Below, in pieces: positions 5,501-25,252 of a stretch of DNA of 55,661 nt. The first letter of the stretch is position 1. Every line of letters begins with the position of its first letter. The stretch is from the NCBI GenBank assembly GCA_038209015.1, contig JBBQYC010000002.1, positions 1-55,661 on the forward strand. Direction: 5' to 3'. Below the pieces are notes generated by a model, which made no database searches, was not told the DNA's origin, and saw nothing but the letters and a program-made list of their open reading frames with translations. The DNA comes from Candidatus Saccharimonadales bacterium (GTDB lineage Bacteria > Patescibacteriota > Saccharimonadia > Saccharimonadales > JBBQYC01). Position numbers and translations under genes: made by a program.

Positions 5501-5710
5501 TATCTGCACGTAATAGGAATTATCCGTAGTTGCAAAGTAATCGGTAGTATCATGCTGAAACTTTGCTATTCCAGAAACGCTAGAGCCTGTAGCAAACACT
5601 GTAGGCACAAAGGTTAATTGACTTACTAGCAGCACACCCACAAGAAGAAGGGGTCTGAGCCTTGTTCGTAAGTTCCTTGCAAAGCTTAAGTTTAATGACT
5701 TGCCTATCAT
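2540..5710 (-). CDS. large secreted repetitive surface protein (adhesin-like)
   Basis: It has an N-terminal signal/anchor (RLRPLLLVGVLLVSQLTFVPTVFA). Three ~200-aa modules each show a carboxypeptidase-regulatory-like beta-sandwich signature and a Cys pair. There is one FN3-like domain (PDAPMNLSASS...YKVYRDG). Three 76-aa Ig-like repeats (DKTNPxIxY...NGWxxSxVTVTFxCxD...GTAVDNAGN) are followed by a terminal Ig-like domain. Confidence 0.85.
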   Translation of the reverse strand: MIGKSLNLSFARNLRTRLRPLLLVGVLLVSQLTFVPTVFATGSSVSGIAKFQHDTTDYFATTDNSYYVQIFNGTFSGLSHPDALGAYSVGGVPDGTYRVRVNNPGADNMPKLDNLTSLNYPVGVSGSSVTRDVTFDLSNVSVTVLGPDGNPADNLAVSMSSIGYSQFTDTSGTIQFETSYAINNGKISNSATTGPNGVGVIPILTNVYYSICAAYNGKQYCAPRQTVSDDTNVQINIPNTNVSGVVKYSDGANDIFFDTNVNNNIQIYNNDFSGTSTPDSAGNYSMSNVPDGSFNTRIWTSGSSNGYGVKLPSLSNLSSSNSPFVVNGSDLTKDVVIRLSYVTITVKDANGNLVEGASVNLSSKGQSVFTDSSGSIEFSTPTTYNNGVIGNGASTNVSGVAVVPILTDVNYSICASYNSVQKCLDNQIVSSDITDEIVFAEANTSGVMKFQDSSNTYYADTTTSPSKPYVQIFNDVFSGISNTDTSGNYTVGNMPNGSYRVRVFTPSSNNDQLPRIENLTSTNSPVSISDQNDAIQDITFDLANTEVTVKDLDGNKVSNTSVSATSIGQSTFTDSSGIIQFETPAVTNNGMISNGGNTDSNGETSFALLSGVYYSICAVINGNTYCANNQTISQDTSITIQAVPDAPMNLSASSPTNNPYLTWNAANGATSYKVYRDGTYLETVTATNHIDSGVTEGTHDYYVTAVNAGGESDPSNTISILVDKTDPDITYTLSPAANTNGWNNSNVTVTFNCSDTSSGISSCTNPVTVTTEGESQIATGTAVDNAGNSTTINATINLDKTNPTINYSSSSTPNANGWYGSNVTVTFTCADELSGISSCTSPITVSTEGANQTVTGTAVDNAGNTVSTSVDISLDKTNPAITYTLTPAPNTDGWNNSDVTVTFSCSDALSGIDTCLGSTTLTNEGANQTVTGSAVDNAGNSVSVTATISIDKTNPTVTNVQVNPNVVIKNTNPFFVVSANAADQLSGVKYVEYYIDTDPGQGNGTQMSYSGGNASASGNAASLSTGQHTVYVRVQDSAGNWSTSSSTGFVVAGLPF
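2861..3544. repeat. three tandem 228-bp coding repeats inside the surface-protein gene
   Basis: The period is 228 bp, with unit starts at about 2861, 3089 and 3317. The cores at 2891-2942 and 3119-3170 are identical except for one base. The third unit is more diverged. Confidence 0.85.
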
Positions 5711-9607: not shown

Positions 9608-10330
9608 TTACTTATTAAAACGATTTTTGATTTTCCAATAAGGACTACTCCAAAAGCGGTACCTTACAATATCCAGCTTCTTAACTTTTGGTAGATAAGA
9701 TACTTTTCCATTAATGACTTTTTTGGCTTGCCTCTTGCCACCCTCAATTTTGGCGCCAGGTAAACGTTCAAATCTTCTTTTGATAATTCTAGGAGGTTTG
9801 ATACTGGATGCATCTCCTCTAGGGCTGGGAGGTATGCTGACAACCCTAAAGTTGACCCCCACCGAATTCTCATACTCAACCCATATTTGCTGATCGCAAG
9901 TAGCATTACAGCCCTCAAACTGTACTCCAGCTAACTTAAATTCCAAAGAGTCTCTAATACCTAAGACTGCTCTGGATATCTCTTCTTCAGCATCAAGAGC
10001 TTTTACAGAAAATCGTTCACCAGCAAACTGTTCATAAAAATGCACATACAGATTGTAAGCGGGTTCGTTACTTGCGTTACTCACAGTTATGTAGCTAGTC
10101 CAGTTATTTCCTTTAGTTTTTTTACTGCGAACCTCAAAGTTTACGTGTGGAACTTTGCTCTCCAGCCTAGGTATAAGTTTTTTTAAAGTGTTAAAAATAG
10201 TGTTCTTAAATATAAATGCAAGCAAAGCTATAGAAGCGGCCGCTAGAACAGCCTCTAGAATATTCAGAATTAAACCGTTACTGTACAGCCAGATCCAGAT
10301 AGAATTTAAAGCGTTTAGTGCTGTCTCCAT
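9608..10330 (-). CDS. membrane-anchored hypothetical protein
   Basis: It has an N-terminal hydrophobic helix and a basic C-terminus. It lies immediately downstream of the replication-relaxation gene with a 2-nt gap. Confidence 0.5.
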   Translation of the reverse strand: METALNALNSIWIWLYSNGLILNILEAVLAAASIALLAFIFKNTIFNTLKKLIPRLESKVPHVNFEVRSKKTKGNNWTSYITVSNASNEPAYNLYVHFYEQFAGERFSVKALDAEEEISRAVLGIRDSLEFKLAGVQFEGCNATCDQQIWVEYENSVGVNFRVVSIPPSPRGDASSIKPPRIIKRRFERLPGAKIEGGKRQAKKVINGKVSYLPKVKKLDIVRYRFWSSPYWKIKNRFNK

Positions 10331-10332
10331 GC

Positions 10333-11034
10333 TTAGTAGTTTACTTTTTTAGGTACTACTTTAAAAGAAAGGTCATCCTCGTCTAAATATGACTCTTCCA
10401 TCTTCTCATCAACATATTCTTTTAGCTTGCGGCAGTCGGCCTTAGACTTGCGGATAATGTGAACATCTGGGTATTTATCCCACTCCCAATCATCTGATTC
10501 ATAGTGATCTATATATTTTCTGATACGTTTTTTAGCTATGAACAAGTGCTGGCCGTCGGTTAGCTCAATAAAGTAGTGGTTTCCATTCTTTGGCTTCACA
10601 TACAAGCTCGGTAGGGGTTTTATCATACCTTCGATAGTAGATATTTCTGGTCCGGTCATAATCACTACACCAGTGCCTACTATGGCAATGTAAGCGCCAT
10701 GTATGGATACCTGCAGGTCTATAAAGTCTTCCGACTTTGTGCGCTCTCTCAGCCGGCTAGCTAGGCTGTCCTTGTCTATGTCTGGCATGTTTTGCTGAAT
10801 ATACTTAATAGCTTTTGGCGCTAGGTAATACCTGGCTGATTTGTTCTGTAGGCGATAGCTCTTTTTATATATCTTACCTAAGTAGTCTCTACTGTGAAGT
10901 ATCTGTAGGGCACTGTAGGCAGCATTGGTTGAAGTGTTTCTATGTTTAGCTAGATTATCTGTAGTTACATAACGAAAGCGGTAGACGAGTTGTAGTAAGT
11001 TGGATTGTTTTTGGTTTAGTTTTCTCTCGTACAT
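10333..11034 (-). CDS. replication-relaxation family protein
   Basis: The N-terminal winged-helix-like region QSNLLQLVYRFRYVTTDNLAKH....AYSALQILHSRDYLGKI resembles the Replic_Relax family of actinobacterial plasmids and AICEs. Confidence 0.55.
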   Translation of the reverse strand: MYERKLNQKQSNLLQLVYRFRYVTTDNLAKHRNTSTNAAYSALQILHSRDYLGKIYKKSYRLQNKSARYYLAPKAIKYIQQNMPDIDKDSLASRLRERTKSEDFIDLQVSIHGAYIAIVGTGVVIMTGPEISTIEGMIKPLPSLYVKPKNGNHYFIELTDGQHLFIAKKRIRKYIDHYESDDWEWDKYPDVHIIRKSKADCRKLKEYVDEKMEESYLDEDDLSFKVVPKKVNY

Positions 11035-11097
11035 ATACGTAGTATAAAGGAGAGAACAAGAATTAGTATAATAAACAGGGGTGAATGTAGTTAAAAG

Positions 11098-11117
11098 TTA
11101 TAATTTCGGAATTATAA
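11098..11117. promoter_or_regulatory. 8-bp-arm palindrome in the divergent control region
   Basis: TTATAATT tcgg AATTATAA lies between the divergent replication-relaxation and recombinase operons. A second inverted repeat, CTATAAC...GTTATAG, is at about 11165-11189. A possible promoter TTGAAT-17-TAAACT is at 11139-11167. Confidence 0.35.
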
Positions 11118-11198
11118 GAATAATACAACGTTTTATCCTTGAATAATGCTTATTTAGGTAGTAAACTATAACTATATAGGTAGGTTATAGGGGGTAAA

Positions 11199-11336
11199 AT
11201 GGGTAGAAGAAAAGGATCAACCAACAAGCCAAAACCGGAACTCAGTCTAGAGGACCGAATGGAAATACTTGCCAAACTACTCATTGAAACCGTTGAAGAC
11301 GAACTAAAGGGTCACGGGCATGCTACAGAAAGCTAA
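11199..11336 (+). CDS. small basic protein (45 aa), candidate recombination directionality/DNA-binding factor
   Basis: This ORF is not in the track because it is under 60 aa. ATG at 11199 is preceded by AGGGGG. It translates to MGRRKGSTNKPKPELSLEDRMEILAKLLIETVEDELKGHGHATES. It overlaps the recombinase start by 17 nt. Confidence 0.4.
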   Translation: MGRRKGSTNKPKPELSLEDRMEILAKLLIETVEDELKGHGHATES

Positions 11337-13032
11337 TGTAAATGCCGTAGCAGCCATACGCGTGTCTACAACCAAACAAGGCACAGACGGTGACTCGCCC
11401 GAAGCCCAACGTGAACAAATTGAACGCTTCGCAGAAACCCGTGGTATTAACATCAAGCAATACTTCGTTTTCCTAGAATCAGCTAGCAAAGAGCAGCAAC
11501 CCATTCAGCAAGCGATTGATTTCTGCAAGAACCCTAAGAACGGCATAAACCTGTTCATTATTAAATCGATTGACCGTTTTACGCGCGGTGGCTCTGATGT
11601 ATACAATCCGCTAAAACTACAACTCGACCAGGCAGGAGTGTCACTAGTAGACATTTACGGTGTTATTGGTGGCCAGAAAGTTAACACACTGGACCACCTT
11701 GGATTTGAATACAACTGGAGCATATATTCACCAACTAAAAAGTCCGAGATACTGGAAGCCGAAAGGTCAAAGGACGAACTACGCGACATATTGAGCCGTG
11801 TTATCGGTGCCGAAATACGCTACACCCAGCTCGGCTACTGGATGCGCCAGACACCTTATGGATTTACAAGCGAGAAAGTCGAAACACAGCACGGTAAACG
11901 CACAATACTAAAACCTCACCCAGAAGAAGCTACATTCATAGAACAGATATTTAAGCTAAGAGCCGGAAACTACCTAACGGACCAACAAATTGTCGATAAA
12001 CTGAACGACCAGGGCTTTAAAACTCGAGTCCGCAACGTTCGTAGTAAACATGACCGTACCAAGATAGTCCGTCAAACTGGCGGTCAACCACTCAGCGTAA
12101 AGGCGATGCAGAAGTTACTGCACAATCATCTGTATGCAGGCATCATTTGCGAGAAATGGTCTGACAATAAGCCCACTAAAGCCGCGTTTGATGGCCTGGT
12201 AAGTATTGCACTGTTCAATAAAGCTAACCGTGGCAAGAAAGTTATAGACGTTGATGAGCAAGGCGACTACACAATCACTAAGTCCGAAGCACCCAAAAAC
12301 GTGCTCAATCGAGGCAAAAAGACTATGGAGTTTTCATTCAGAAGGTTTGTACTGTGCCCAGAGTGCGAAAAGCCGCTACTTGGTAGTGCGTCTAGAGGGA
12401 AAAACGGAAAATACTATCCGGCCTATCACTGTAGTAATCATGGCCACTATTTTAGAGTGCCGAAGGATGAACTAGAAGAAAGCGTCGATGCGTTTGTGAA
12501 GCAGTTTGTTGTGCCCAAAGAACGCGTGGATGATGTTATGACACTAGTGCGCAAACTGTACGAAAAGCACCGCGAGGAAGCCCTGAAAGAGCTAGAAACC
12601 ATAGACGAACGTATAACTGCACTACGCACAGAGTCAGAGATGATTATAAATAAGCTGAAGGTGCTGAATAATCAGACAGCGTTGCAGTACCTAGAGGCAG
12701 ACCTCGAACGTATCGAAAAACAAATAACTGTATTGCAGGCCAAGAAAAATAAGCAAGATAACGAAAAAGACGTAAAAATGGAGCATGCACTGGACCGCAT
12801 AGAATATTTCCTGGAAAACCTTGATGAACTACTGCTAAAACAGAGGTCACCAGTTAAAAAATCACTGTTTTTCAAGGCACTATTCACAAAACTGCCAACC
12901 TACGAAGAAATAAAACCTGGAAACACAAAAACACCCCTTTTTACAGGGGTGAATTCGCTTGCTCAGATGGTAACATCTAAAAATTCTCTTATGGTGATCC
13001 CGAGGGGAATCGAACCCCTATTGCCAGGATGA
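11320..13032 (+). CDS. large serine recombinase
   Basis: It has the resolvase catalytic motif AAIRVSTTKQG and a recombinase domain. A zinc-ribbon is present (CPECEKPLLGSASRGKNGKYYPAYHCSNHGH), followed by a C-terminal coiled coil. The last 41 nt overlap the tRNA-Glu on the opposite strand. Confidence 0.85.
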   Translation: MLQKANVNAVAAIRVSTTKQGTDGDSPEAQREQIERFAETRGINIKQYFVFLESASKEQQPIQQAIDFCKNPKNGINLFIIKSIDRFTRGGSDVYNPLKLQLDQAGVSLVDIYGVIGGQKVNTLDHLGFEYNWSIYSPTKKSEILEAERSKDELRDILSRVIGAEIRYTQLGYWMRQTPYGFTSEKVETQHGKRTILKPHPEEATFIEQIFKLRAGNYLTDQQIVDKLNDQGFKTRVRNVRSKHDRTKIVRQTGGQPLSVKAMQKLLHNHLYAGIICEKWSDNKPTKAAFDGLVSIALFNKANRGKKVIDVDEQGDYTITKSEAPKNVLNRGKKTMEFSFRRFVLCPECEKPLLGSASRGKNGKYYPAYHCSNHGHYFRVPKDELEESVDAFVKQFVVPKERVDDVMTLVRKLYEKHREEALKELETIDERITALRTESEMIINKLKVLNNQTALQYLEADLERIEKQITVLQAKKNKQDNEKDVKMEHALDRIEYFLENLDELLLKQRSPVKKSLFFKALFTKLPTYEEIKPGNTKTPLFTGVNSLAQMVTSKNSLMVIPRGIEPLLPG

Positions 13033-13066
13033 GAACCTGGTGTCCTAACCGTTAGACGACGGGACC
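12992..13066 (-). tRNA. tRNA-Glu (anticodon CUC), CCA encoded
   Basis: The hand-folded cloverleaf is GGTCCCG TC GTCT AACGGTTA GGAC A CCAGG TTCTCAT CCTGG CAAT AGGGG TTCGATT CCCCT CGGGATC A CCA. All stems pair, with one G-U in the acceptor stem and one in the D stem. Confidence 0.9.
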
Positions 13067-13109
13067 GTATTGGTCTGTGTTGATTTTAAAGTACTTGCTC
13101 GTTCTGGCC

Positions 13110-13192
13110 ATTGCCAGGATGGCTTATTTATTTTCCTTGTCTCCGACAAGAGCTGGTGTCCCTGCCTACCGGCAGGCAGGCTAACCGTTAGA
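13110..13192 (-). pseudogene. tRNA-Glu-derived mosaic fragment (5' two-thirds, interrupted)
   Basis: Three blocks are identical to the real tRNA. They are ATTGCCAGGATG (13110-13121), CTGGTGTCC (13153-13161) and CTAACCGTTAGA (13181-13192). Hairpin-containing insertions of 31 nt and 19 nt separate them. There is no T-arm or 3' acceptor strand. Confidence 0.5.
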
Positions 13193-13254
13193 TGTATCCC
13201 GTAGTATCTTAACAAGATTACTACTGGGACGATGAGGCCGCGTCGATTGTGTAA

Positions 13255-13314
13255 TTCTTTGGTTTTCAAGTTTGCCGAAAAACAAGTTGCTCGGCAAACT
13301 TGAAAACCAAAGAA
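13255..13314. repeat. perfect 24-bp-stem palindrome
   Basis: TTCTTTGGTTTTCAAGTTTGCCGA (13255-13278) and its exact reverse complement (13291-13314) flank a 12-nt loop. There is no flanking T-tract on either strand. Confidence 0.85.
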
Positions 13315-13530: not shown

Positions 13531-15261
13531 ATGCAGTATGTAGCTGATAAATGGTATGTATATTTTACGCGTATTACCACGGTATTTGCGCTGGTATTCT
13601 TTATAGCGACTATTGTTGACCTCACTGTTCCAGGCTTAAAAGAAATAGGCCTGGAGTATGGCCTTTCGCTCGTAACGCTCGGTCTCACGGGGCTGCATCT
13701 GTTGTTTGTGGTCACGCTATACCGTTATGTTAAACGTAATAATGGCATAGCGGCCGCTTCACTCTTACTGGCTTTTTTATTCATGATGAACCTCGTAAAT
13801 CTCATCCATAGCACCGGCAGGCTTCATTCGTACTACCATGGCGTATGGATCCTGCTTGTACTAGCGAGCGGCATGTTCGGCCCGTATGCAATGATTGGGT
13901 TCTGTTTCTTAACGACCTTATACATGTTGCTTATAGCTACAGATATACCAGGACAGTTCTCGCTCGATCTATTCAGTTTCATTGCCGCCTTAGCGGTATA
14001 CCTGATAGCAATTGGAGGTTACTATGCATGGAGGCGTGTCTGTATCGACCAGGAAAGCGCGCAGGTAACTAAGCTTTCCGGGCAGCTTCAGGACACAAAA
14101 AAGCAAGCAGAAATATTAGTGCAGAGTATTAAAGACGGCGTCATCGTGACTGATCATACAGGTCAGATTAAACTCATTAACCCTGCTGCCGCAAAGATGA
14201 TTGGATGGCCGGTGGCTGAAGCGCAGGGAATTGACGTGAATCTTGTCTTGAAACTAAAGCAAGAAAATGGCTCCGAGCTTTCTGATGAGCTCAATCCGTT
14301 TAAGACAGTACTGTCGAGTGGACAACCCGCAGATGCATCATATCAGTTGATGAAGAAAGATAATTCGTCGGTCATTGTCTCATTGGCTGTAACACCGGTT
14401 CTGAACAAACAGGGTCAAAAGCCAACTGGCACAGCCGCGATTATTCGAGATATAAGTGTGTCGCGGGCTGAAGAAGCTAAGCGTGCTGAGTTTATTAGCA
14501 CTGCTAGCCATGAAATGCGCACGCCAGTCGCGGCAATCGAAGGGTATTTACAACTGGCACTGAATGATAAAGTAGCAACCATCGATACCAAAGCGCGCAG
14601 TTTTCTTGATAAAGCCCTGGATTCAACTCACCATCTAGGCAAACTCTTCCAAGACTTACTTACGAGCGCTAAGGCTGAAGATGGACGACTTGTTAGCCAT
14701 CCGACAGTTGTTGAGATGTCTGAATACTTACAAAAGCTCACCGATGGGCTTAAGTTCGCTGCCGAAAAAAAAGGTTTGCTTCTTGAATTCAAACTCGGAG
14801 CCGGGCAGGGTGAAACAACGAGTAATGTGAACGGTAACTTAGTGCGGCCTCTTTACTATGTCCATGTAGATCCGGATAGGCTGCGCGAAGTTATCACCAA
14901 TTTGTTTGATAATGCTGTCAAATACACTGAGCGCGGCAAAATAACGGTCGGCCTCACCGGTAACCCTGATGTTGTACAGCTATTTGTACGAGATACAGGA
15001 GCCGGTATTCCTAAAGATGATGTTCCACATTTGTTCCAAAAGTTCTACCGTGTAGACAATTCATCGACACGAACAATAGGTGGTACAGGCCTAGGCCTAT
15101 TTATATGTAAGCAGATAATTGACCTCTATCACGGAAACATCTGGGTCGATAGCGATACCGGCAAGGGTAGTACGTTTTATATAAATTTGCCACGATTATC
15201 TACACAGAAAGCAACTGATTTACAAAAAGTAGAACAGGAACAGTCAGCTTTAACCAATTAA
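13531..15261 (+). CDS. membrane sensor histidine kinase with PAS domain
   Basis: The N-terminus has about 5-6 TM helices, followed by a PAS-like segment (ILVQSIKDGVIVTDHTGQIKLINPAAAKMIGW). The H-box is SHEMRTPV, the N-box NLFDNAVKYT, and the G-boxes DTGAGI and GGTGLGL. Confidence 0.85.
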   Translation: MQYVADKWYVYFTRITTVFALVFFIATIVDLTVPGLKEIGLEYGLSLVTLGLTGLHLLFVVTLYRYVKRNNGIAAASLLLAFLFMMNLVNLIHSTGRLHSYYHGVWILLVLASGMFGPYAMIGFCFLTTLYMLLIATDIPGQFSLDLFSFIAALAVYLIAIGGYYAWRRVCIDQESAQVTKLSGQLQDTKKQAEILVQSIKDGVIVTDHTGQIKLINPAAAKMIGWPVAEAQGIDVNLVLKLKQENGSELSDELNPFKTVLSSGQPADASYQLMKKDNSSVIVSLAVTPVLNKQGQKPTGTAAIIRDISVSRAEEAKRAEFISTASHEMRTPVAAIEGYLQLALNDKVATIDTKARSFLDKALDSTHHLGKLFQDLLTSAKAEDGRLVSHPTVVEMSEYLQKLTDGLKFAAEKKGLLLEFKLGAGQGETTSNVNGNLVRPLYYVHVDPDRLREVITNLFDNAVKYTERGKITVGLTGNPDVVQLFVRDTGAGIPKDDVPHLFQKFYRVDNSSTRTIGGTGLGLFICKQIIDLYHGNIWVDSDTGKGSTFYINLPRLSTQKATDLQKVEQEQSALTN

Positions 15262-15332: not shown

Positions 15333-17081
15333 ATGACAAAAGTAATGCTTGTCGAAGACGACAACAATTTAAGAGAAATTTATGAAGCCCGCCTATTAGC
15401 GGAAGGGTACGACATCGTAACAGCCAAAGATGGCGAAGAAGCGCTGGCGATGGCAGTTAAAGAAAAACCAGACCTTATCATTTCAGATGTCATGATGCCG
15501 AAAATAAGCGGGTTTGATATGCTCGATATTTTGCGTAGCACTCCTGAAACCAAAAATACGAAGGTTATAATGATGACAGCCCTAAGCCAAGCTGAAGACA
15601 AAATCCGAGCTGACAAGCTGGGAGCTGATAAATATCTTGTAAAGTCACAGGTAACGCTTGAAGATGTAGCCCGGGCCGCTCGCGAAGTTATAAGCGGCGA
15701 AACAACTCCACCGCCAGTGCAAGAAGAAACTCCAGAAGTACAATCACCAGAACCAGTTAATACTACTCCGCAACCCGCACCGGCTATGCCAGATCCTTTG
15801 GCAGTAGCGCCACCGGTGGTGCCAACGACTATCCAGCCTACTCCACCAGTACCTTTAGATGAACCTGTACAGGCTCCGCCAGTACAAACGCCAGTCCAAG
15901 ATATGGCTGCAATGCAACCTGACCCATTAGTCGTCAATCCATTACAACAACCTAATGATACGGCAGCTCAAGGTGGTGGAGATGCAACAATTATTCAACC
16001 AGCACCGGGAGGCGCGCCGCCTGACCCAAAAGCTGATGTCGCCTCGGCAGTTCCAGCTGAGAGCGACGCAACACCAGAACTACCATCTCTTACAGAAGAA
16101 AACCAAATAGTCGAAGATCAAATTCATAAGTTTGAAGAGTCCATTGTAGCTGATACGCCCACTCATCTAGAAGTGAGTGAAGAAGCTACAAACTTTGCTA
16201 TACCTACTACAGAGACAAATGAATCGCAATCAGAGCAACCTGTGCAGCTACCTGCGCCAGTGACCGCAGAAGTACCAGAAGAAGCAGCCCCACAGCCTCC
16301 GGCAGATTTAAGCGTCCCGCTTGATTTATCTATAAATGAACCTGATGTACCTTTGTCTGATGTACCTCAAACATCACCTGGTTCGGTAAGCGTCGCCGCC
16401 GATCCGTATGCAGTTGCTCCTCCGCCTCCACCACCTCTAGTTGCTTCTCCAGTTATGAACGGCTCTCAGGCAGTCGATACCGTTGTTGCAGCGCCAATCA
16501 ACCAGCCAGCGGCTACTGTTCCCGCACCGAACCAACCAGCTCCAGCTCCTAATACGATCAGTCCGACTGTTATTGCACCTACAAACCCTCCATCTCCTAA
16601 CGAAACTGGCGTAGCGGTTGATGCTTACGGCGTAGCTCAACCCCCGCAAACCGCCCCGCAACGTAATGCACCGACATATGCAGGAAGCGTACCTATTGCT
16701 AATAAGAAGGTAATCCAGCCGTTGACCGATCCGAGCAAGCCTAGCTTCCAAGATATCCTCGCTAAACAAGCTCAGCCCCAAGTCCCTACCGGCGATACAA
16801 ACGCCCAGCCAGCTCCGGTCATGTCATCTGCTGTCCCGGCACCAAGCGAAGCCGCTCCGAATATTCCTATACAGCAAACAAACCCTGTAGCGCAACAGAC
16901 TTTAGCTATACAAAACGATGCGAGGACCATAGTTCAGGAACCGCGATCGAATCCAAACGCTCCACAAGCACCCCCGCAGAGCCAAATTGAAAAACAAGTG
17001 CCAGGCAGTCAATCGCCTAACCAACCTGCAGCAGCAAACCCTGCTGAAGCGACCTTTGATCCAAGCAATATCGCCTTATAG
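15333..17081 (+). CDS. response regulator receiver domain fused to a ~460-aa Pro/Ala/Gln-rich low-complexity tail
   Basis: A canonical REC domain occupies the first ~120 aa (VEDD..., IISDVMMP, MMTALS, KYLVKS). The remainder is P/A/Q/T-rich with no recognisable output domain. Confidence 0.8.
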   Translation: MTKVMLVEDDNNLREIYEARLLAEGYDIVTAKDGEEALAMAVKEKPDLIISDVMMPKISGFDMLDILRSTPETKNTKVIMMTALSQAEDKIRADKLGADKYLVKSQVTLEDVARAAREVISGETTPPPVQEETPEVQSPEPVNTTPQPAPAMPDPLAVAPPVVPTTIQPTPPVPLDEPVQAPPVQTPVQDMAAMQPDPLVVNPLQQPNDTAAQGGGDATIIQPAPGGAPPDPKADVASAVPAESDATPELPSLTEENQIVEDQIHKFEESIVADTPTHLEVSEEATNFAIPTTETNESQSEQPVQLPAPVTAEVPEEAAPQPPADLSVPLDLSINEPDVPLSDVPQTSPGSVSVAADPYAVAPPPPPPLVASPVMNGSQAVDTVVAAPINQPAATVPAPNQPAPAPNTISPTVIAPTNPPSPNETGVAVDAYGVAQPPQTAPQRNAPTYAGSVPIANKKVIQPLTDPSKPSFQDILAKQAQPQVPTGDTNAQPAPVMSSAVPAPSEAAPNIPIQQTNPVAQQTLAIQNDARTIVQEPRSNPNAPQAPPQSQIEKQVPGSQSPNQPAAANPAEATFDPSNIAL

Positions 17082-17822: not shown

Positions 17823-18539
17823 ATGTCTATGATACGTCAGTCAGAAATGCTGTTCGATTTTGCCCCAAAACCACCGGAGTTAACCGCCGAGTCTATCGGT
17901 GTTACAGCTGCTGAATGGGTTGATAGTACAATTTCGTATGACGCGAATTGTACTGTTTTTGATGCCGAGGACTGCCTTAAAGCGGGCAAGGGGACGTGCT
18001 ATGGGCAAGCACTAGGCGGCGTTGCACTACTGGAGCACTGGAATATACCCACAGGAATTGCGATTAGAAATTCCCCATTACATCATGCGTCAACCGTTTT
18101 TGAAGCTCAGGAAGGTCCACTCCTGGACAGTATAGGCTTCATAGAACCAGCCTACAGCCATTATTCGGATGTTTTAAGCTATTGCAGCATTGCAAATGAG
18201 GGGATGCCCCTCGATATCGCTAGGGATGTGCTCAAATCAGCGCGACGCGTTGTGGGAGGTGACATAGATCATGTGGTATTTGCTAAGATGCCCAGCGATC
18301 TACGGTGGACGAAAAAAGAAAATGTGCCGTATCAGCAAGATAAGCAACTGGCAAAATACTCAAAAGCATTCACTATCGCCAGTCCATCAGACGGATACAA
18401 TTCACTTGAAGCAATTGCTACGCTTAAAACATTATTCCATAGCGACAAAACACATTATAATGACGTGTACTCGGCATATATTTCTGATGTACCCGATTTT
18501 ATATATTTTCCAAAACCAAAACCTGGATATGAAGAGTAG
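17823..18539 (+). CDS. hypothetical protein with transglutaminase-like Cys-His core
   Basis: CLKAGKGTCYGQALGGVALLEHWNIPTGIAIRNSPLHHASTVF fits the C...GIP.R......H pattern of transglutaminase-like peptidases. Motif-level evidence only. Confidence 0.4.
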   Translation: MSMIRQSEMLFDFAPKPPELTAESIGVTAAEWVDSTISYDANCTVFDAEDCLKAGKGTCYGQALGGVALLEHWNIPTGIAIRNSPLHHASTVFEAQEGPLLDSIGFIEPAYSHYSDVLSYCSIANEGMPLDIARDVLKSARRVVGGDIDHVVFAKMPSDLRWTKKENVPYQQDKQLAKYSKAFTIASPSDGYNSLEAIATLKTLFHSDKTHYNDVYSAYISDVPDFIYFPKPKPGYEE

Positions 18540-18551
18540 TATAAGGAAGCA

Positions 18552-19907
18552 ATGAGTACGACTAAAACACCAATAGTAGCGATTGTAGGCCGCGCCAATG
18601 TCGGCAAATCAAGTCTGTTCAACAATATCCTAAAACGCCGCGAAGCCATTGTTGCAAAAGAAGCTGGTACTACTCGCGACAGCGTATGGGCGCGGGCCGA
18701 GCATGACGGGCAAAATTTTTGGCTTATAGACACTGCCGGAATGAAAATTGCAGAGGATGATTTTGAACTAACTATCCAAGAACAAATTCAGCAGGCGGCT
18801 GATTCGGCAGATGTTATATGGGTTGTAATCGAAGCCGATACTGTACTCACAGAAGAAGACAGACGCGTCGCTAAGACTGCTCTAAAGAGCCGTAAGCCAG
18901 TCTTTTTGCTCGTAAACAAAGCCGATAAAGCACCTCGCAATACTGCCGCGGATTATATGCGACTTGGTATCAAGCAGATTTATCTCACCAGCACGACCCA
19001 AAACAGTGGTATAGCAGAACTTTTGGATGATCTTACGGAGGTTATTCCACGAGTCACCAAAAAATCTTCTGACGATATATATGTAGCCCTACTCGGCCGG
19101 CCGAATGTCGGAAAATCTGCGCTATTTAATGCACTGGTGAAGAAACAACAGGCTATAGTAGCCGACAGAGCAGGGACGACCCGCGATGTTAACCGGCTTA
19201 GCATCAAATACAAGCTAAAAAATATCCAACTGATGGACACTGCCGGTATACGCCGACAAGGTAAGATTGAACGCGGCATAGAACATTTCAGCGTATTGCG
19301 TAGCCTTGCAGCAATTGAGCAGGCCGATGTCTGCTTACTCCTGATAGATTCAAATGAACTCAGTGTGGCGTTAGATCAGCGTATTGCGGGTATGGTTAAG
19401 GAATCAGGCAAGGGCTTAGTTCTAGTGGTCAGTAAATGGGATAGCCTGGATAAAGACGCCTACACGCGCGACGGACTAGCTCCTAAAATTGCAGCTGATT
19501 TTCGCTTTACCCCCTGGGCGCCACTCATTTTCACCAGTTCAGTCACCGGGCAGAACGTTACCAAGTTATTTGATCTAATCCTTGAAATTGATCAAAGACG
19601 CCAAACGCAGATAAAAACACCAGAGCTCAACAGGTGGTTGCGTCAGGTTGTAAATAAACACCCGCCGGCTGGTCTTAAGAGTTCACAGCCACATCTAAAT
19701 TATATTGTTCAAGAGTCGGATAATCCTATTAACTTCAAGATATTTGGACGGCAGACAAAGTTGCTCCACTGGAGTTACAAACGCTATATGGAACGGGAAC
19801 TTCGAGAGAAATTTGGCTTTGAAGGCACAGCGCTCAAGCTATGGTTTTTTGATAAGGACCAACCCGGCTCACACCGCTACAAAGATAAAGACAAACAAAC
19901 AGATTAG
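18552..19907 (+). CDS. der: ribosome-associated GTPase Der (EngA)
   Basis: There are two tandem G domains (GRANVGKSSLFN and GRPNVGKSALFN; DTAG twice; NKAD and SKWD) plus a KH-like C-terminus. The last ~45 codons lie in or after a duplicated segment. Confidence 0.9.
   Translation: MSTTKTPIVAIVGRANVGKSSLFNNILKRREAIVAKEAGTTRDSVWARAEHDGQNFWLIDTAGMKIAEDDFELTIQEQIQQAADSADVIWVVIEADTVLTEEDRRVAKTALKSRKPVFLLVNKADKAPRNTAADYMRLGIKQIYLTSTTQNSGIAELLDDLTEVIPRVTKKSSDDIYVALLGRPNVGKSALFNALVKKQQAIVADRAGTTRDVNRLSIKYKLKNIQLMDTAGIRRQGKIERGIEHFSVLRSLAAIEQADVCLLLIDSNELSVALDQRIAGMVKESGKGLVLVVSKWDSLDKDAYTRDGLAPKIAADFRFTPWAPLIFTSSVTGQNVTKLFDLILEIDQRRQTQIKTPELNRWLRQVVNKHPPAGLKSSQPHLNYIVQESDNPINFKIFGRQTKLLHWSYKRYMERELREKFGFEGTALKLWFFDKDQPGSHRYKDKDKQTD
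19773..19879 (+). repeat. 107-bp direct repeat, copy A (inside der 3' end)
   Basis: It matches 21565-21671 at 104 of 107 positions when aligned by eye. The mismatches are G/A, C/T and G/A. Confidence 0.9.
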
Positions 19908-19916
19908 AACACACTA

Positions 19917-19945
19917 TTGACAATACTGTCCTCATGTACTATAAT
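19917..19945 (+). promoter_or_regulatory. consensus sigma70-type promoter (TTGACA-17-TATAAT)
   Basis: TTGACA at 19917-19922, a 17-nt spacer, then TATAAT at 19940-19945. It lies about 185 nt upstream of the first cassette ORF. Confidence 0.6.
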
Positions 19946-19951
19946 ACATAC

Positions 19952-20131
19952 TGAAGACAGTAGTCTTTAGCAGGTAAGGACATCCAGTGTTCCTGCCAGC
20001 TACCGAAACAGTTCTAACCCAAGCCAGAAGCGGCCTGATCAAGTATCAATAGGCGCCTCCGCGATAAGGGATAAGTTAGTCCAAACTAAGGCAATTAACT
20101 TAACTCTAGACGCATTAGGAGGCGTTTTTCT
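19952..20131 (+). promoter_or_regulatory. structured 5' leader with an anti-SD element
   Basis: CGCCTCC (20054-20060) is complementary to the SD region GGAGGCG (20118-20124). Additional hairpins are at 19951-19970 and about 19970-19996. Confidence 0.3.
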
Positions 20132-20473
20132 ATGGAAAAAGATAAGAAGCAATTTTGGAAAGGCTATTTTTGGGGCGCTGCATTTTTGATGCCAGGCGCA
20201 ATCCTGAATTTGGTTGATACGTTTATTGAAGAAGACAAGATTAAAGACCGTGTCATTGAGACCCAGGTTTACCATGAACAGATTGAGGAGACTTTAACCC
20301 AGGACTTTGAGTCACTGAGTGATTTAAGACTGGATGGTTATGGCAACTTCACGTTTAAAACCGAAGAAAGTTCACAGCTCGAAGTCTGCAAAGGCAACTA
20401 TAAAGTGCAAGAAAATCTTGCCCTCATTGCCGGTGACTTGGTGTGTTCACGATCGTTAGAAAGTAATAGGTAA
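20132..20473 (+). CDS. small membrane-anchored protein, paralog 1
   Basis: SD AGGAGG. It has an N-terminal hydrophobic helix and a C-terminal ~60 aa with two Cys. This region aligns with the next ORF (DF...L.LD....FTF.T.....LEVC.G.Y......A..AG...C.R.L). Confidence 0.6.
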   Translation: MEKDKKQFWKGYFWGAAFLMPGAILNLVDTFIEEDKIKDRVIETQVYHEQIEETLTQDFESLSDLRLDGYGNFTFKTEESSQLEVCKGNYKVQENLALIAGDLVCSRSLESNR

Positions 20474-20484
20474 GGAGTTCAGCA

Positions 20485-20844
20485 ATGTCAGAATACAAAT
20501 CAAGCATCGAAAAATGGCGCCCTTCAGGTTTTGTGAGAGGTATGTGGTTTGGGATAGCAATAATGTTCACATCCAACATACTAGTTGAAGCCATGAGGGA
20601 TGACGATGTAAACCCAACGGAGCTACAAGCTAACAACCACCATTTGCAAGAAGAACTAGCTGGTGACTTCAATGATGTCGATGGCCTGATATTAGACTCG
20701 TCTAATAAGTCATTTACTTTTGAAACTCAAAATGGTGACGTACTAGAAGTCTGTACTGGTCAATATGAGATCAGCCAAGAAATAGCTACCGTAGCAGGCA
20801 ACATTGCTTGTACCAGAACGTTACAGCCACAAGGGAATAAATGA
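20485..20844 (+). CDS. small membrane-anchored protein, paralog 2
   Basis: SD AAGGAG. Same architecture and conserved Cys pair as the ORF at 20132-20473. Confidence 0.6.
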   Translation: MSEYKSSIEKWRPSGFVRGMWFGIAIMFTSNILVEAMRDDDVNPTELQANNHHLQEELAGDFNDVDGLILDSSNKSFTFETQNGDVLEVCTGQYEISQEIATVAGNIACTRTLQPQGNK

Positions 20845-21194
20845 TGTACGAACGTCTTAATTGGCGCTCTCGAGCGCTTTGCGGGTTAGTGTTAGGCGGT
20901 GTTGCTCTAAACTTCACCGCCCGCACTGAACAACCTAGATTAAACACCGAGATACCTGCCGTAGTCATAGATAAAGAATACGATGACCCCGACACTTGGA
21001 CTGTCATGGTCGGCAATAAGCCTAACATGCACTATGACCCAGCACGCTATTACCTGAAATTACGACAGTGCCAAGAAGTATATGACTCACAAGCCGATAG
21101 CAACAGTTGCGTAACAGTGACCGAAGAAGTCTCTGAAAAGATATATGAGGCGTATCCAGTTAGTTCAAATATAACTACGAATGAAAGGAAGTAA
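20841..21194 (+). CDS. small membrane-anchored hypothetical protein
   Basis: SD AAGGGA and a 4-nt overlap with the preceding ORF. It has an N-terminal hydrophobic segment and a Cys pair (CQEV...NSCV). Confidence 0.55.
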   Translation: MMYERLNWRSRALCGLVLGGVALNFTARTEQPRLNTEIPAVVIDKEYDDPDTWTVMVGNKPNMHYDPARYYLKLRQCQEVYDSQADSNSCVTVTEEVSEKIYEAYPVSSNITTNERK

Positions 21195-21196
21195 TT

Positions 21197-21556
21197 ATGA
21201 GAAAGAAGCACTACGAATCATCCAGCGAAAGAATAAAAGACTATGGTTTGTTTGCAGGGTTCTACGCAGTCGCCTTTGGGGCTGCAGTTGCAGTGAGCGT
21301 ACCTGCTCAATATGGGGCCGCAAAACTATCTGAAAGGTCATATGACGGGTCAGATGCCCAAGAGTACCTAGAAGATGCAGGTTATACGGACGTGGAATAT
21401 CAAGATACCAGTCGTCTGTTTGTGCAACTAACCGGCTGTGGCCGTGATGACGTCATCAAGTTTGAGTTTGAGGCCATTGCACCAGCCACTGGCAGGGAAG
21501 TGCAGCTGGCGGTATGCGACAACATCTTCAAGGGTGCGACTATCCGCCAAGACTAG
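21197..21556 (+). CDS. small membrane-anchored hypothetical protein
   Basis: SD AAAGGAAG. It has an N-terminal hydrophobic segment and a Cys pair (TGCG...AVCD). Confidence 0.55.
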   Translation: MRKKHYESSSERIKDYGLFAGFYAVAFGAAVAVSVPAQYGAAKLSERSYDGSDAQEYLEDAGYTDVEYQDTSRLFVQLTGCGRDDVIKFEFEAIAPATGREVQLAVCDNIFKGATIRQD

Positions 21557-21564
21557 TTGTGGCA

Positions 21565-21671
21565 AGTTACAAACGCTATATGGAACGAGAACTTCGAGAG
21601 AAATTTGGCTTTGAAGGCACAGTGCTCAAACTATGGTTTTTTGATAAGGACCAACCCGGCTCACACCGCTA
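21565..21671 (+). repeat. 107-bp direct repeat, copy B
   Basis: See copy A at 19773-19879. Confidence 0.9.
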
Positions 21672-21693
21672 TAAGAAAACAGAGGAAAACTAA
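21565..21693 (+). pseudogene. displaced original 3' end of der
   Basis: It reads in frame as SYKRYMERELREKFGFEGTVLKLWFFDKDQPGSHRYKKTEEN to its own stop at 21691-21693. No upstream der body is attached. Confidence 0.7.
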
Positions 21694-22231
21694 AGCGTGT
21701 AGGGGCGGGCTTTTTTAGAAGATATAAGAACTCATCAACACCTGTTTCATTGAACACTGCACTACAATCAGTACCTTGTCTTTCATTTGCATAGACGTAC
21801 AGAGTTCGCCCGTCGTTTAATGAAACTTCGTCTAGCTGCTTACCATAATCACTGACTTCTTGATTGGTTACTGTTACAACCCGGCTACAATAAAAATGAG
21901 GCATGTCGAAAGCACTTGCATCTCCCATCCCTTTAGGCTGTGTCGATGCAACGATAATATCACTCGTAGTAAATGAAGCTTCCTGAAAACCGTTTTCGGT
22001 ATAAGCGTTGTAGCGCAAATTATAAAAGCTATCTTCATACGGCAATGCAATGTCTATTTCAGGTAGAACAAAGACACCTTCGGATGCAGATACCACTGGT
22101 TGCCGGAAACTATCGTCCATGCCGCTACGCACCAAGCGTGAATATTCATTGAAATCACCCTGGATGGCTATTTTGATTGCATCCCAACTCCATAATGCAC
22201 TAAGAACTGTCAATGCAATCAATAAAACCAA
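21626..22231 (-). CDS. membrane-anchored hypothetical protein
   Basis: The track start is TTG. The frame stays open upstream (…KKSKNKIQKFHRPSWRAVAVITW) without an ATG, so the true start is uncertain. The last ~22 codons are antisense to the displaced der tail. Confidence 0.55.
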   Translation of the reverse strand: MVLLIALTVLSALWSWDAIKIAIQGDFNEYSRLVRSGMDDSFRQPVVSASEGVFVLPEIDIALPYEDSFYNLRYNAYTENGFQEASFTTSDIIVASTQPKGMGDASAFDMPHFYCSRVVTVTNQEVSDYGKQLDEVSLNDGRTLYVYANERQGTDCSAVFNETGVDEFLYLLKKPAPTRFSFPLFSYSGVSRVGPYQKTIV

Positions 22232-22367
22232 CCATGTTATAACAGCAACTGCTCGCCATGATGGTCTATGAAATTTTTGTATCTTATTTTTCGATTTTTT
22301 TATGTTATTGCCTGGAATCAGTATTTACCGGCTTGCATAGAAGGTATATATCAAAGATACTTGCCCT

Positions 22368-23009
22368 ATGGGACTAATTCGCAAGAATCCTTTCAACACT
22401 GAAAATAATAAGCCGCTATATACTTTGGGGTTAAGCACCACGGTTATTCTTGTGGGTCTTGGGAACGATGGGGCGAAGTATCAGAATACTCGTCATAACA
22501 TAGGTTTTGCTTGTTTGGATCAGTTTATTAAAGCCCAAAATATGGAATCTTGGATTCATAAAAAGGATTTGAAAAGCCATGTTAGTACAGGGACCGTTGG
22601 CAGCACGCGGGTAATAGCCATTAAGCCAACAACAATGATGAATCTCTCTGGTGAAGCAGTGCAGGCAGTCAGCGCATATTACAAAGTCCAAACAAACAAC
22701 CTCATTGTAGTACATGATGAGCTAGACGTTGTGTTTGGCCACATACGATGCCGCATGGGGGGCGGAGCAGCCGGTAATAACGGTGTCAAATCAATCATCC
22801 AGCATTTGGGTGAGGAGTTCGGCAGAGTGCGCGTTGGAATTGGCCCAAAGACTCCTGAACAAATCGATAGCGCCGATTTTGTATTGGGAACATTCAATCA
22901 AACCGAGCAAAAAACCGTACCGCTTATACTCCAGGAAGTAACAGCGCTATTAACTGAATTTGTTGCTACCACGCAAGTACCTCACGATACGAGGAACGTA
23001 TTGTTTTAG
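22368..23009 (+). CDS. pth: peptidyl-tRNA hydrolase
   Basis: LVGLGNDGAKYQNTRHNIGF, and ...VVHDELD...GGAAGNNGVKS. Confidence 0.9.
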   Translation: MGLIRKNPFNTENNKPLYTLGLSTTVILVGLGNDGAKYQNTRHNIGFACLDQFIKAQNMESWIHKKDLKSHVSTGTVGSTRVIAIKPTTMMNLSGEAVQAVSAYYKVQTNNLIVVHDELDVVFGHIRCRMGGGAAGNNGVKSIIQHLGEEFGRVRVGIGPKTPEQIDSADFVLGTFNQTEQKTVPLILQEVTALLTEFVATTQVPHDTRNVLF

Positions 23010-23048
23010 TTCATGCAGAAGTCGGACAAGATTACCACACCGAGCGAT

Positions 23049-23342
23049 CTAGTTGCTAAGAAAGTACTCGGTTTCTTCTGCTAATACATGTCCGGCGGCT
23101 ACGCCTACTGTATCAAGCAGCTCATTCATTTGTTTATAGATATCGCCGTAATATGCCTGCATAGCAATATCACCTACTTCGCCTGCATTCAAATAACCCT
23201 GACGTTCTTGCTCGCGGGCATCTTCAAGCAGTCCTATAAGACTGCCCACCTCATTAAAATGGTAATAAATATCTAGATGCTGTACGAGACTCCTATCATC
23301 GTCTTCTGGCTGGAGCAGCCTGAACCGTTCATTGATGATCAT
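23049..23342 (-). CDS. hypothetical acidic protein
   Basis: The ORF overlaps the upstream gene by 4 nt, which suggests translational coupling. No family recognised. Confidence 0.45.
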   Translation of the reverse strand: MIINERFRLLQPEDDDRSLVQHLDIYYHFNEVGSLIGLLEDAREQERQGYLNAGEVGDIAMQAYYGDIYKQMNELLDTVGVAAGHVLAEETEYFLSN

Positions 23343-23994: not shown

Positions 23995-24388
23995 CGGAAA
24001 ACACCCTTCAACCCACCCAGACAAAGCGTAGATACATATCCACAGATGATCACGCCTCCGCACGCGGAGTACTGGATACTTGCCATTGATTGGTAGTTAA
24101 AGGGGTTAGTTTGTTTTAGAGCCTGCATTCATGAGCCAAACCGAAGTTTTTCTCAATATACTGAGGTCTGGAAATCCATAACTCAGTACTCTTTTCCTAA
24201 TTTGAGAAAAAGATAGTGCAAGAGTATAAAGTGGAGGGTAACAACTTTAGACGACTCTAAAACAATCTAACAAATAGTCTCACTTGCGTGAGAACTGTTA
24301 GAATAGGTATGTAAGGTACATAAAACGGGTATACCGCTTACGAGTTGCAATTTTAGCAAATTTATATTATTTGTCAATAGGTATTTGT

Positions 24389-25252
24389 ATGAATGTCAAT
24401 ATAGTAGTACGCGACAACAGTAGTTTCCCTAACAAACTCAAAACTATCTATTCTGTGCCTGAAAAATTATATTATCGCGGATCAATTCAAGGACTTACAT
24501 CTAGCCCTGTGGTCAGCATTGTTGGCAGCAGGGCTGTTTCTCCTTATGGGCGGGCTGTAACATCAAAATTTTCCGCTGAACTAGCCAGTAAAGGGGTTGT
24601 GGTTGTTAGTGGATTAGCTCTGGGGGTTGATTCTATAGCCCACCAAAGCTGTCTTGAAGCTGGGGGAATCACTATAGCCGTACTGCCATCCCCTGTGGAC
24701 AAGGTGTATCCTGCGAGCCATCGGCAGTTATCAGAAAGGATTATTGAAAAGGGCGGGGGACTCATAAGTGAATATGGCCAGGACGACCGCTCAGAAGCCT
24801 TCAAATCGCGTTTTATAGCGCGAAACCGGATTGTGTCCGGTTTATGCGATATTTTGCTAATTACCGAAGCCTCAGAGCGTAGCGGAACACTACATACCGC
24901 CAACTTTGCACTTGAGCAGGGAAGAACTGTCATGGTTGTACCGGGGAATATAACCAGTCCGGGCAGCAAGGGAACAAACAACCTCATAAAAGCTGGTGCT
25001 CTGCCGGTTACGGGCACAGACGATATCTTACATCAGTTAGGTGAGTTCGATTTCCAGTCAGACAATGACATTGTTGCAGCGAATGAGCACGAAGCTCTCA
25101 TCTTAAACAGTATGAAGGAGGGCGTAACCGATGCAGGTATCATTCAAACTTCTATTGGTATTGATCCCGCCTTATTCAATCAAACAATGACCATGCTTGA
25201 AATTACCGGAAAAATTCGCCCCTTGGGCGCCGGACATTGGACACTTAGTTGA
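24389..25252 (+). CDS. dprA: DNA processing protein DprA (Smf)
   Basis: IVGSRAVSPYG, SGLALGVDSIAHQ, GTLHTANFALEQGR. The track start at 24371 is TTG, and the first ATG is at 24389. Confidence 0.85.
   Translation: MNVNIVVRDNSSFPNKLKTIYSVPEKLYYRGSIQGLTSSPVVSIVGSRAVSPYGRAVTSKFSAELASKGVVVVSGLALGVDSIAHQSCLEAGGITIAVLPSPVDKVYPASHRQLSERIIEKGGGLISEYGQDDRSEAFKSRFIARNRIVSGLCDILLITEASERSGTLHTANFALEQGRTVMVVPGNITSPGSKGTNNLIKAGALPVTGTDDILHQLGEFDFQSDNDIVAANEHEALILNSMKEGVTDAGIIQTSIGIDPALFNQTMTMLEITGKIRPLGAGHWTLS

Follow-up and report, generated by a model that had tools for sequence, protein, structure and literature searches.

A promoter-bearing four-gene block between direct repeats of the der 3′ end is a gain/loss variant among near-identical strains of a Saccharibacterium

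In a 55.7-kb stretch of DNA from the genome of an uncultivated Saccharibacterium (the window), der, the gene for the ribosome-biogenesis GTPase Der/EngA, is followed by a block made up of a promoter, a leader and four small open reading frames (ORFs; c1 to c4), and then by a second copy of the der 3′ end. The block is a real and recent gain/loss variant among near-identical strains. The explanation that we favour, with a probability of about 0.6, is that the block came in as foreign DNA together with a der 3′ end of its own, and that both its insertion and its loss go back to reciprocal recombination by the host within the 107 bp of homology that now flank it. The coordinates of the features are given in Table 1.

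Realignment of the two der ends in register over 107 nt gives three mismatches, at positions 19796 (G in copy 1, A in copy 2), 19831 (C/T) and 19838 (G/A), and the repeat described in the first-pass annotation of this DNA is reproduced exactly. A repeat search returned a single family (19773-19891 and 21565-21683; 119 nt, 93% identity) with a spacing of 1792, so that the insertion, counted as one repeat unit plus the cargo, measures 1,792 bp. As no other long direct repeat is dispersed in the window, this pair is not due to chance. The homology stops abruptly at both edges, and the longest stretches in which the copies are perfectly identical run from 19797 to 19830 (34 nt) and from 19839 to 19879 (41 nt). 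Past the repeat the reading frame of der continues in both places into short tails that cannot be aligned with one another, der itself now ending in KDKDKQTD and the downstream copy in KKTEEN with a stop codon of its own, as had been read from the sequence at the outset. The two Der endings differ by the last seven to eight unconserved residues and by one A/V change. Since the TIGR03594 model ends at residue 432 and the repeat corresponds to residues 408-443, the difference is restricted to the unconserved tail. The 107-bp repeat has a fold z-score of -0.98 and no notable dyad symmetry; the search showed no inverted repeat inside it, and none of 20 nt or more at the ends of the block.

Population data were taken from Logan assemblies (k=31) of the run series SRR21824646 to SRR21824755, using exact-protein look-ups. 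The cassette, its right end carrying the copy-2-type sequence (A at 21588), was seen in at least 10 runs of this one series and in no other assemblies. The common cassette contig (L162, from five runs) spans 19850-21618, which is the unitig expected between exact shared stretches of 31 nt or more, and the left-flank contig (L165) terminates at 19826, as expected at the same branch of the graph. All of the cassette contigs that reach its right end run on into the der fragment, and a pure haplotype in which der with tail 1 is followed by the cassette and directly by pth (peptidyl-tRNA hydrolase) was never seen in these assemblies. Exact look-ups of the Der, pth and 59-aa der′ ORF proteins gave no record, because the Logan contigs break in or near these genes, and the truncated Der products of L167 and L165 were not in the clustered protein collection.

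The empty allele is seen in contig L167 (SRR21824655, 1377 nt), which aligns to 22521-21565 and 19879-19353 and reads through der, a single repeat, tail 2, the convergent ORF conv and the start of pth, with no cassette. Neither the right flank nor the 420 nt of der that precede the repeat show a single mismatch, the flanks being identical over more than 1.2 kb. An empty site with der ending in KKTEEN and converging on the gene at 21626-22231 had been predicted in the first-pass annotation, and it is this arrangement that the near-identical strain carries. As conv is present and identical in the empty allele, it lies outside the insertion. The empty site was recovered as a single contig from one run; we estimate the chance that L167 arose as a graph artefact in a run holding only the filled allele at a few percent at most, because the graph would have had to lose the 1.77-kb cassette path at both of its ends and yet retain a chimeric path.

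The single-nucleotide polymorphisms at 19796, 19831 and 19838 allow the two states to be phased. Copy 1 reads G-C-G and leads into tail 1, copy 2 reads A-T-A and leads into tail 2, and L167 reads G-T-A and leads into tail 2. One reciprocal crossover within 19797-19830 interconverts the filled and empty states with no extra mutation. The event could be the integration of a circle carrying A-C-G and tail 1, or a deletion between two repeats; the empty site need not be ancestral, and may just as well have arisen secondarily by deletion.

The divergence between the copies bears on the origin of the two der ends. The strains differ from the window at 17 of 14,004 positions (0.12%), and the repeat copies differ from one another at 3 of 107 (2.8%; Poisson P = 3e-4 for three or more differences at the strain rate). 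Up to the crossover interval the filled and empty alleles do not differ; they diverge only past it. The excess of divergence between the copies over that between the strains, together with the unalignable tails, shows that one der 3′ end derives from a diverged relative and was brought in with the cargo, and that the duplication is not a recent one made in situ. If the block was integrated, tail 1 would have arrived together with the cassette. The proposal that the block is a genuine insertion supplying its own replacement for the der 3′ end is supported.

In the mechanism that would account for these observations, the incoming DNA carried 107 bp about 97% identical to the resident der, followed by an unrelated 8-codon tail, the promoter, the leader and the four-gene operon. 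A single reciprocal crossover of the Campbell type inside the der homology would insert the block, leaving der with a full reading frame and an imported tail and shifting the resident 3′ end downstream as copy 2. The same homology would permit deletion, and the population would come to hold both alleles, filled and empty, related to one another by a crossover within 19797-19830. The agent would be host homologous recombination, there being no recombinase in the element, and either allele could spread within the species by natural transformation using the long flanking homology. The direction of the event, the circular intermediate and the enzyme are inferred. As in a Campbell integration, the duplicated segment is the homology itself and the repeats are hybrids whose markers switch at an internal crossover. 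Homologous recombination is favoured because the crossover is internal to the homology, because there is no recurrence in relatives and because arrays of the cargo family are not found at der; a homologous single crossover, which the first-pass annotation had offered as one of its alternatives, is the explanation that fits best. DprA is encoded at 24371-25252, 2.7 kb downstream, and Saccharibacteria are naturally competent via ComEC/DprA (PMC10633639).

Several points weigh against this explanation. The longest identical stretches, of 34 and 41 bp, come close to the shortest lengths on which RecA recombines efficiently, so that an enzyme working site-specifically in trans is still to be reckoned with. 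The block is compactly laid out, with its promoter 10 nt past the der stop and the repeat 8 nt past the c4 stop, and looks more like a maintained element than an accident. Contig L161 (SRR21824705) is 1822 nt long and its first and last 30 nt are identical, which makes it a closed 1792-nt cycle holding the cassette, A-T-A and tail 1, as would be given by an excised circle or a tandem copy, though simplification of the graph could also have produced it. The explanation further requires a source for the first circular intermediate, the search for a helper recombinase spans 55.7 kb of the genome only, and both the window junctions and the empty site are known from assembled contigs. That the block is a self-contained mobile element is not demonstrated by any of these data.

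The strongest competitor, though an unlikely one, is that the block is a cis-mobilizable integrase-less element (CIME), or resembles a pseudo-staphylococcal cassette chromosome (pseudo-SCC). The repeats would then be attL and attR, and a recombinase encoded elsewhere or on a co-resident element would excise a 1,792-bp circle and re-integrate it at der. In passages of a review of such elements, direct repeats that include a housekeeping 3′ end are a hallmark of elements with a tyrosine integrase, and CIMEs retain att sites without an integrase (PMC5704250). The locus does have att-like repeats with no integration or transfer genes between them, an empty site exists, and the compact design with its own promoter would suit such an element, as would the closed cycle of L161 and the hybrid junction of a further contig, L164 (SRR21824708), in which the cassette end is followed by the reciprocal A-C-G. 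These two contigs could represent an excised circle or tandem copy, but contigs like both can also be generated in the Logan/Minia graph when the bubble formed by the C-G/T-A variant pair is popped and tips are clipped. Further against such an element, no cognate integrase is encoded within the 55.7 kb, where the sole recombinase is a large serine type within its own apparent element beside tRNA-Glu, no additional copy of the repeat is present in the window, none of 160 relatives has the arrangement, and the cargo-family arrays of other loci lie away from der.

The relatives in question are 160 related Saccharibacteria loci (L001-L160), of which the first 80 were subjected to self-BLAST (word size 7) and a scan for the motif WF[FI][ED]K and all of which were searched by tblastn with Der. 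Neither a duplication of the der end nor this cassette was found in any of the 160, where only chance 15-17-mers were shared, and close homologs of the cassette proteins were likewise missing from all of them but one (L006, below). The nearest Der proteins, from Saccharibacteria and Saccharimonadales metagenome-assembled genomes, are 70-74% identical in scans of genome and metagenome contigs; none above 74% was found in these scans, so no filled or empty sites of the same genus were available there. With respect to a tyrosine-integrase island, the flanking repeats include an intact 3′ end of the target and an empty conspecific site exists, while no integrase lies inside the element and no other lineage among the 160 has the cassette or a duplicated der end at this site. 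The comparison in the first-pass annotation with the strategy of tRNA- and tmRNA-targeting islands is not borne out, as no dedicated site-specific system is seen and the crossover falls in the middle of the homology (19797-19830), not at its edge; nor did the cassette appear at der in the other lineages among the 160 loci, as had been envisaged.

The search for a recombinase covered the cargo and the window. No recombinase family was matched by c1 to c4 in Pfam, PHROGs, NCBIfam or PADLOC, and no tyrosine recombinase was found in the window. The serine recombinase 7 kb upstream of der, put forward earlier as a possible mobiliser in trans, is real, but no further copy of the der repeat lies near it or elsewhere in the window, and the 107-bp repeat shows no notable dyad symmetry such as a serine-recombinase-type core would have. 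The 3′ end of the recombinase gene overlaps tRNA-Glu(CTC) on the opposite strand (12992-13066). The region 9608-13314, which includes the recombinase, is probably a small integrated element of its own. A 29-nt inverted repeat, 93% perfect, lies at 13255-13314, just beyond the tRNA-Glu and the recombinase. Large serine recombinases use short att sites with imperfect dyad symmetry, a crossover at a central dinucleotide and minimal identity between attP and attB, and neither need nor make repeats of 107 bp.

Three further candidates were rejected. Mobilisation in trans by the serine recombinase in the manner of SCC was set aside on the 107-bp repeat, the lack of notable dyad symmetry and the lack of a der-like site near 11320-13032. 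An integron gene cassette, which would be a single ORF without a promoter, closed by an attC site and lying beside intI and attI, does not agree with the presence of an own promoter and four ORFs, the lack of an inverted repeat at the ends and the lack of an integron-type integrase in the window. Insertion of an IS or transposon was discarded given that there are no inverted repeats at the ends and no transposase domain, and that the duplication is 107 bp long and imperfect where a short target-site duplication would be expected.

A one-off illegitimate join would also produce the arrangement. Here two haplotypes, one with der, tail 1 and the cassette and the other with der, tail 2, conv and pth, would have been joined illegitimately at 21564|21565 when a transformed fragment was anchored by homology on its other side, a piece of der being left as a passenger and a later deletion between the accidental repeats giving the empty allele. 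The left edge of copy 2 is indeed abrupt, with microhomology of about 3 nt at most, the group to which the organism belongs is naturally competent, and the arrangement does not recur elsewhere. In the related locus L006, whose Der is 72% identical, a native gene that matches the profile of the c1/c2 family at E 2.4e-21 sits exactly between der and pth without any duplication of der. Yet the sequence following tail 1 has no DNA similarity to that following der in L006, and the pure haplotype of der, tail 1, cassette and pth is missing from the assemblies, in which the right ends of the cassette always enter the der fragment. Two events, the join and the deletion, are moreover needed in place of one, and we regard this course as somewhat less probable than mobilisation in trans. 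A bolder suggestion, which seems to us improbable, is that the block belongs to an unrecognised class of tiny recombinase-less operon cassettes with their own promoters in Saccharibacteria, which would excise as circles of about 1.8 kb, for which L161 might speak, re-insert at the der 3′ end through a recombinase in trans or a dedicated use of competence and recombination, and so swap repertoires of surface proteins between strains.

An assembly artefact, in which strain variants were mis-joined or a small free circle was threaded into the chromosome through the shared 107 bp, is very improbable. The metagenome samples a mixed population, the one run series yields filled-type as well as empty-type sequences, and a graph with k=31 looks alike whether the element is integrated or forms a circle with the repeat in common. 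However, the window links the der-specific sequence with G at 19796, C at 19831, G at 19838 and tail 1, and these markers are 36-42 nt apart, so that an assembler with k of 45 or more would presumably have needed real reads for the links. The Logan unitigs independently give the passage from c4 to der-like sequence, in which 21588 is A, for at least 10 runs, as well as that from der to G. That the der end was duplicated in tandem long ago and the inert copies have since drifted apart, for which the same-orientation direct repeats and the lack of a recombinase might speak, is hardly credible when copies 2.8% diverged, with unalignable tails, vary in presence among strains diverged by 0.12% whose flanks are identical over more than 1.2 kb, when an empty site exists and when the arrangement is found in no relative.

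The position of the insertion is itself a variable one. In 79 of the 80 genome loci, and in most metagenome loci of sufficient length, pth follows der on the same strand. The gap between the two has a median of 93 nt among 147 relatives; 45 of the gaps are 150-1000 nt long and 15 exceed 1 kb, the maximum being 3.07 kb. The large gaps hold unrelated, lineage-specific ORFs, many of which have N-terminal hydrophobic or signal-like segments. Since unrelated cargo is found in many of the larger gaps, the der-pth junction is a general hotspot of variable cargo across Saccharibacteria. None of the insertions in these gaps is flanked by a der duplication among the 160 related loci. The interval between rluB and der also differs in length among relatives and is a second variable spot beside der; in the window it holds a 238-aa ORF (17823-18539) with a weak match to a transglutaminase core, under the Pfam threshold, and no counterpart in the 160 related loci.

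Table 1. Positions of the features discussed, numbered from the first letter of the window
Feature	Position	Strand	Remarks
der (ribosome-biogenesis GTPase Der/EngA)	18552-19907	+	Intact, with the tail 1 ending; TIGR03594 equivalog, 458 bits, residues 7-432
Direct repeat copy 1	19773-19879	+	der codons 408-443; polymorphic states G-C-G
34-bp stretch identical in both copies	19797-19830 (= 21589-21622)		Crossover interval between filled and empty alleles, by phasing
Tail 1	19880-19907	+	Final 8 codons and stop of der in use, ...HRYKDKDKQTD*; unalignable with tail 2
Sigma-70-type promoter, TTGACA-17-TATAAT	19917-19945	+	12/12 consensus; begins 10 nt after the der stop; sole such site in 18400-23100
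Structured 5′ leader, about 180 nt	19952-20131	+	Whole-leader z = -3.06
c1	20132-20473	+	113 aa; N-terminal hydrophobic anchor, C-terminal domain with 2 Cys; paralog of c2; AlphaFold2 mean pLDDT 83
c2	20485-20844	+	119 aa; paralog of c1 (33% identity)
c3	20841-21194	+	117 aa; orphan; hydrophobic N-terminus, Cys pair at 77 and 90
c4	21197-21556	+	119 aa; hydrophobic N-terminus; C-terminal domain of about 65 aa common to hypothetical phage proteins
Direct repeat copy 2 (displaced der 3′ fragment)	21565-21671	+	Polymorphic states A-T-A; begins 8 nt past the c4 stop
Tail 2	21672-21693	+	...HRYKKTEEN*, stop at 21691-21693; copy 2 keeps the der frame; ending used in the empty allele L167
conv (convergent ORF)	21626-22231	-	201 aa; hydrophobic N-terminus, 2 Cys; final 68 nt overlap copy 2 and tail 2
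pth (peptidyl-tRNA hydrolase)	22368-23009	+	TIGR00447; conserved neighbour downstream of der in Saccharibacteria
ORF without matches	9608-10330	-	
Replic_Relax protein	10333-11034	-	Adjoins the serine recombinase
Large serine recombinase	11320-13032	+	Resolvase, Recombinase and Zn_ribbon_recom domains; phrog_95 integrase; 7 kb upstream of der

The regulatory layout attributed to the block in the first-pass annotation, with a consensus promoter, a leader of about 180 nt, four ORFs each preceded by a Shine-Dalgarno sequence and no integrase, stands in every part. A hairpin predicted in the leader (20051-20126) has a z-score of -4.35, with none of 200 shuffled sequences equally stable; it pairs with the Shine-Dalgarno sequence of c1 and is followed by a run of U (UUUUU). 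A possible 21-codon leader ORF, from GTG at 19987 to TAG at 20052 (19987-20052), has a Shine-Dalgarno-like motif ahead of it and stops at the foot of the hairpin. Leader ORF and hairpin together would form an attenuator-like layout, as read from one leader sequence only. Neither the leader nor the cassette has a match in Rfam at the gathering threshold, and the permissive threshold gave only sub-threshold noise. Ahead of the cassette ORFs lie purine-rich Shine-Dalgarno-like stretches, AGGAGG, AAGGAG, AAGGGA and AAAGGAAG. The G+C content of the cassette is no different from that of its surroundings, so that there is no compositional sign of a foreign origin.

All four cargo proteins are uncharacterised and membrane-anchored, with a hydrophobic N-terminus and a cysteine pair, from which we infer that they are probably envelope or surface proteins. 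The proteins c1 and c2 are members of an unannotated family for which Pfam has no model and whose proteins, about 110 aa long and also membrane-anchored, fall into 108 clusters at 50% identity. They share an N-terminal hydrophobic anchor, two invariant cysteines and the motif C-x-G-x-Y...G-x-[IL]-[AS]-C, and their genes are frequently found in tandem arrays of two to three. Loci of the family elsewhere are at 7843-8304 of L006, 438-1905 of L174 and 44-827 of L175; the arrays of L174 and L175 adjoin neither der nor pth. The AlphaFold2 model of c1 shows a helix packed against a four-stranded sheet, for which Foldseek gave no match in the PDB below E = 0.2, and c2 had no match among phage genomes. 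The only relative of c3 among 5.8 billion proteins is c3 itself. The C-terminal domain of c4 (residues ~52-117) matches phrog_902 (E 1.2e-4) and hypothetical proteins of Stenotrophomonas, Klebsiella jumbo, Rhizobium and Xanthomonas phages, and is also present in the protein P0002 on a phage-like contig (L173) that carries ERF and lysozyme genes; a scan of viral contigs with c4 gave nothing. No matches to c1 to c4 were found in Pfam, NCBIfam or PADLOC, and thus none to a known defence family.

Beyond the block, conv overlaps the displaced end of der, as had been pointed out earlier, and has no homologs in the 160 related loci. Upstream of its TTG start are 31 in-frame codons (22232-22327, minus strand) without ATG, GTG or TTG, ILIPGNNIKKSKNKIQKFHRPSWRAVAVITW, which look like the positively charged N-terminus of a membrane anchor. 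Translation may in fact begin at a non-canonical codon, ATT or CTG; damage to the gene is another possibility.

Two other ORFs in the window, away from der, stand out in their sequence. One, at 15333-17081, comes after the gene of a PAS histidine kinase (13531-15261) and has a response-regulator receiver domain fused to a Pro/Ala/Gln-rich tail of about 470 aa; this stretch is the local maximum of G+C (0.52) and has a strong negative GC skew. The other, at 2540-5710 on the minus strand, encodes 1056 aa with Ig-like and CarboxypepD_reg domains, probably a surface protein, and contains three 228-nt tandem coding repeats (2886-3502; 63-71% identity).

The bacteria of the Candidate Phyla Radiation, Saccharibacteria among them, have tiny genomes with few recognisable mobile elements, and how they exchange accessory genes is little understood. 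At this locus the filled allele, the empty allele and the crossover interval are cleanly resolved from public data. A promoter-equipped operon of envelope type is gained or lost at a conserved housekeeping junction without a recombinase of its own, the essential gene being spared by the gene end that the element carries. If host recombination and competence are responsible, they would provide a simple route for shuffling accessory genes in these epibionts, and the der-pth junction would be a useful place to find strain-level variation in possible host-interaction proteins. The 107-bp repeat breaks short-k assemblies in ways that mimic circles, and calls of circles from Logan contigs should be made with caution. 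Insertions flanked by repeats, whether of the Campbell type or CIME-like, are known already; such events are poorly documented in this phylum.

Like tRNA- and tmRNA-targeting islands, the block brings a replacement 3′ end for its target gene, but those islands carry a tyrosine integrase beside the att site and fill their target sites repeatedly in many lineages, and neither is the case here. It shares with the SCC and pseudo-SCC elements, which lie at the 3′ end of rlmH (orfX) in staphylococci between direct repeats and of which the recombinase-less ones are moved in trans by the large serine recombinases CcrAB, the character of a recombinase-less cassette at the 3′ end of a conserved gene. 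However, the SCC repeats are about 15-27 bp long as against 107 bp, and the serine recombinase of the window is 7 kb away with no der-like site beside it. The block also resembles CIMEs and decayed remnants of integrative conjugative elements (ICEs) and integrative mobilizable elements (IMEs), which in Firmicutes are found at housekeeping 3′ ends; in the passages of the review describing them these are also short, strain-variable and devoid of integration and transfer genes, with one repeat restoring an intact 3′ end of the target (PMC5704250); der is not among the integration targets named in those passages. CIMEs, however, have an ICE or IME as their ancestor and depend for movement on the integrase that a related resident element provides, whereas no such helper or ancestry is visible at der, where the repeat is long, the crossover lies inside the homology and the host is a Saccharibacterium. 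In Campbell-type integration the homology is duplicated around the insert, the hybrid repeats switch at the crossover, the element needs no recombinase and loss occurs between the repeats. Such integration is known chiefly from laboratory constructs and from plasmid or phage co-integrates; a natural, non-replicating circle of 1.8 kb needs a source, and the identical stretches at this locus, 34 and 41 bp, are short. The layout of the block is nonetheless exactly that which a Campbell-type insertion would yield.

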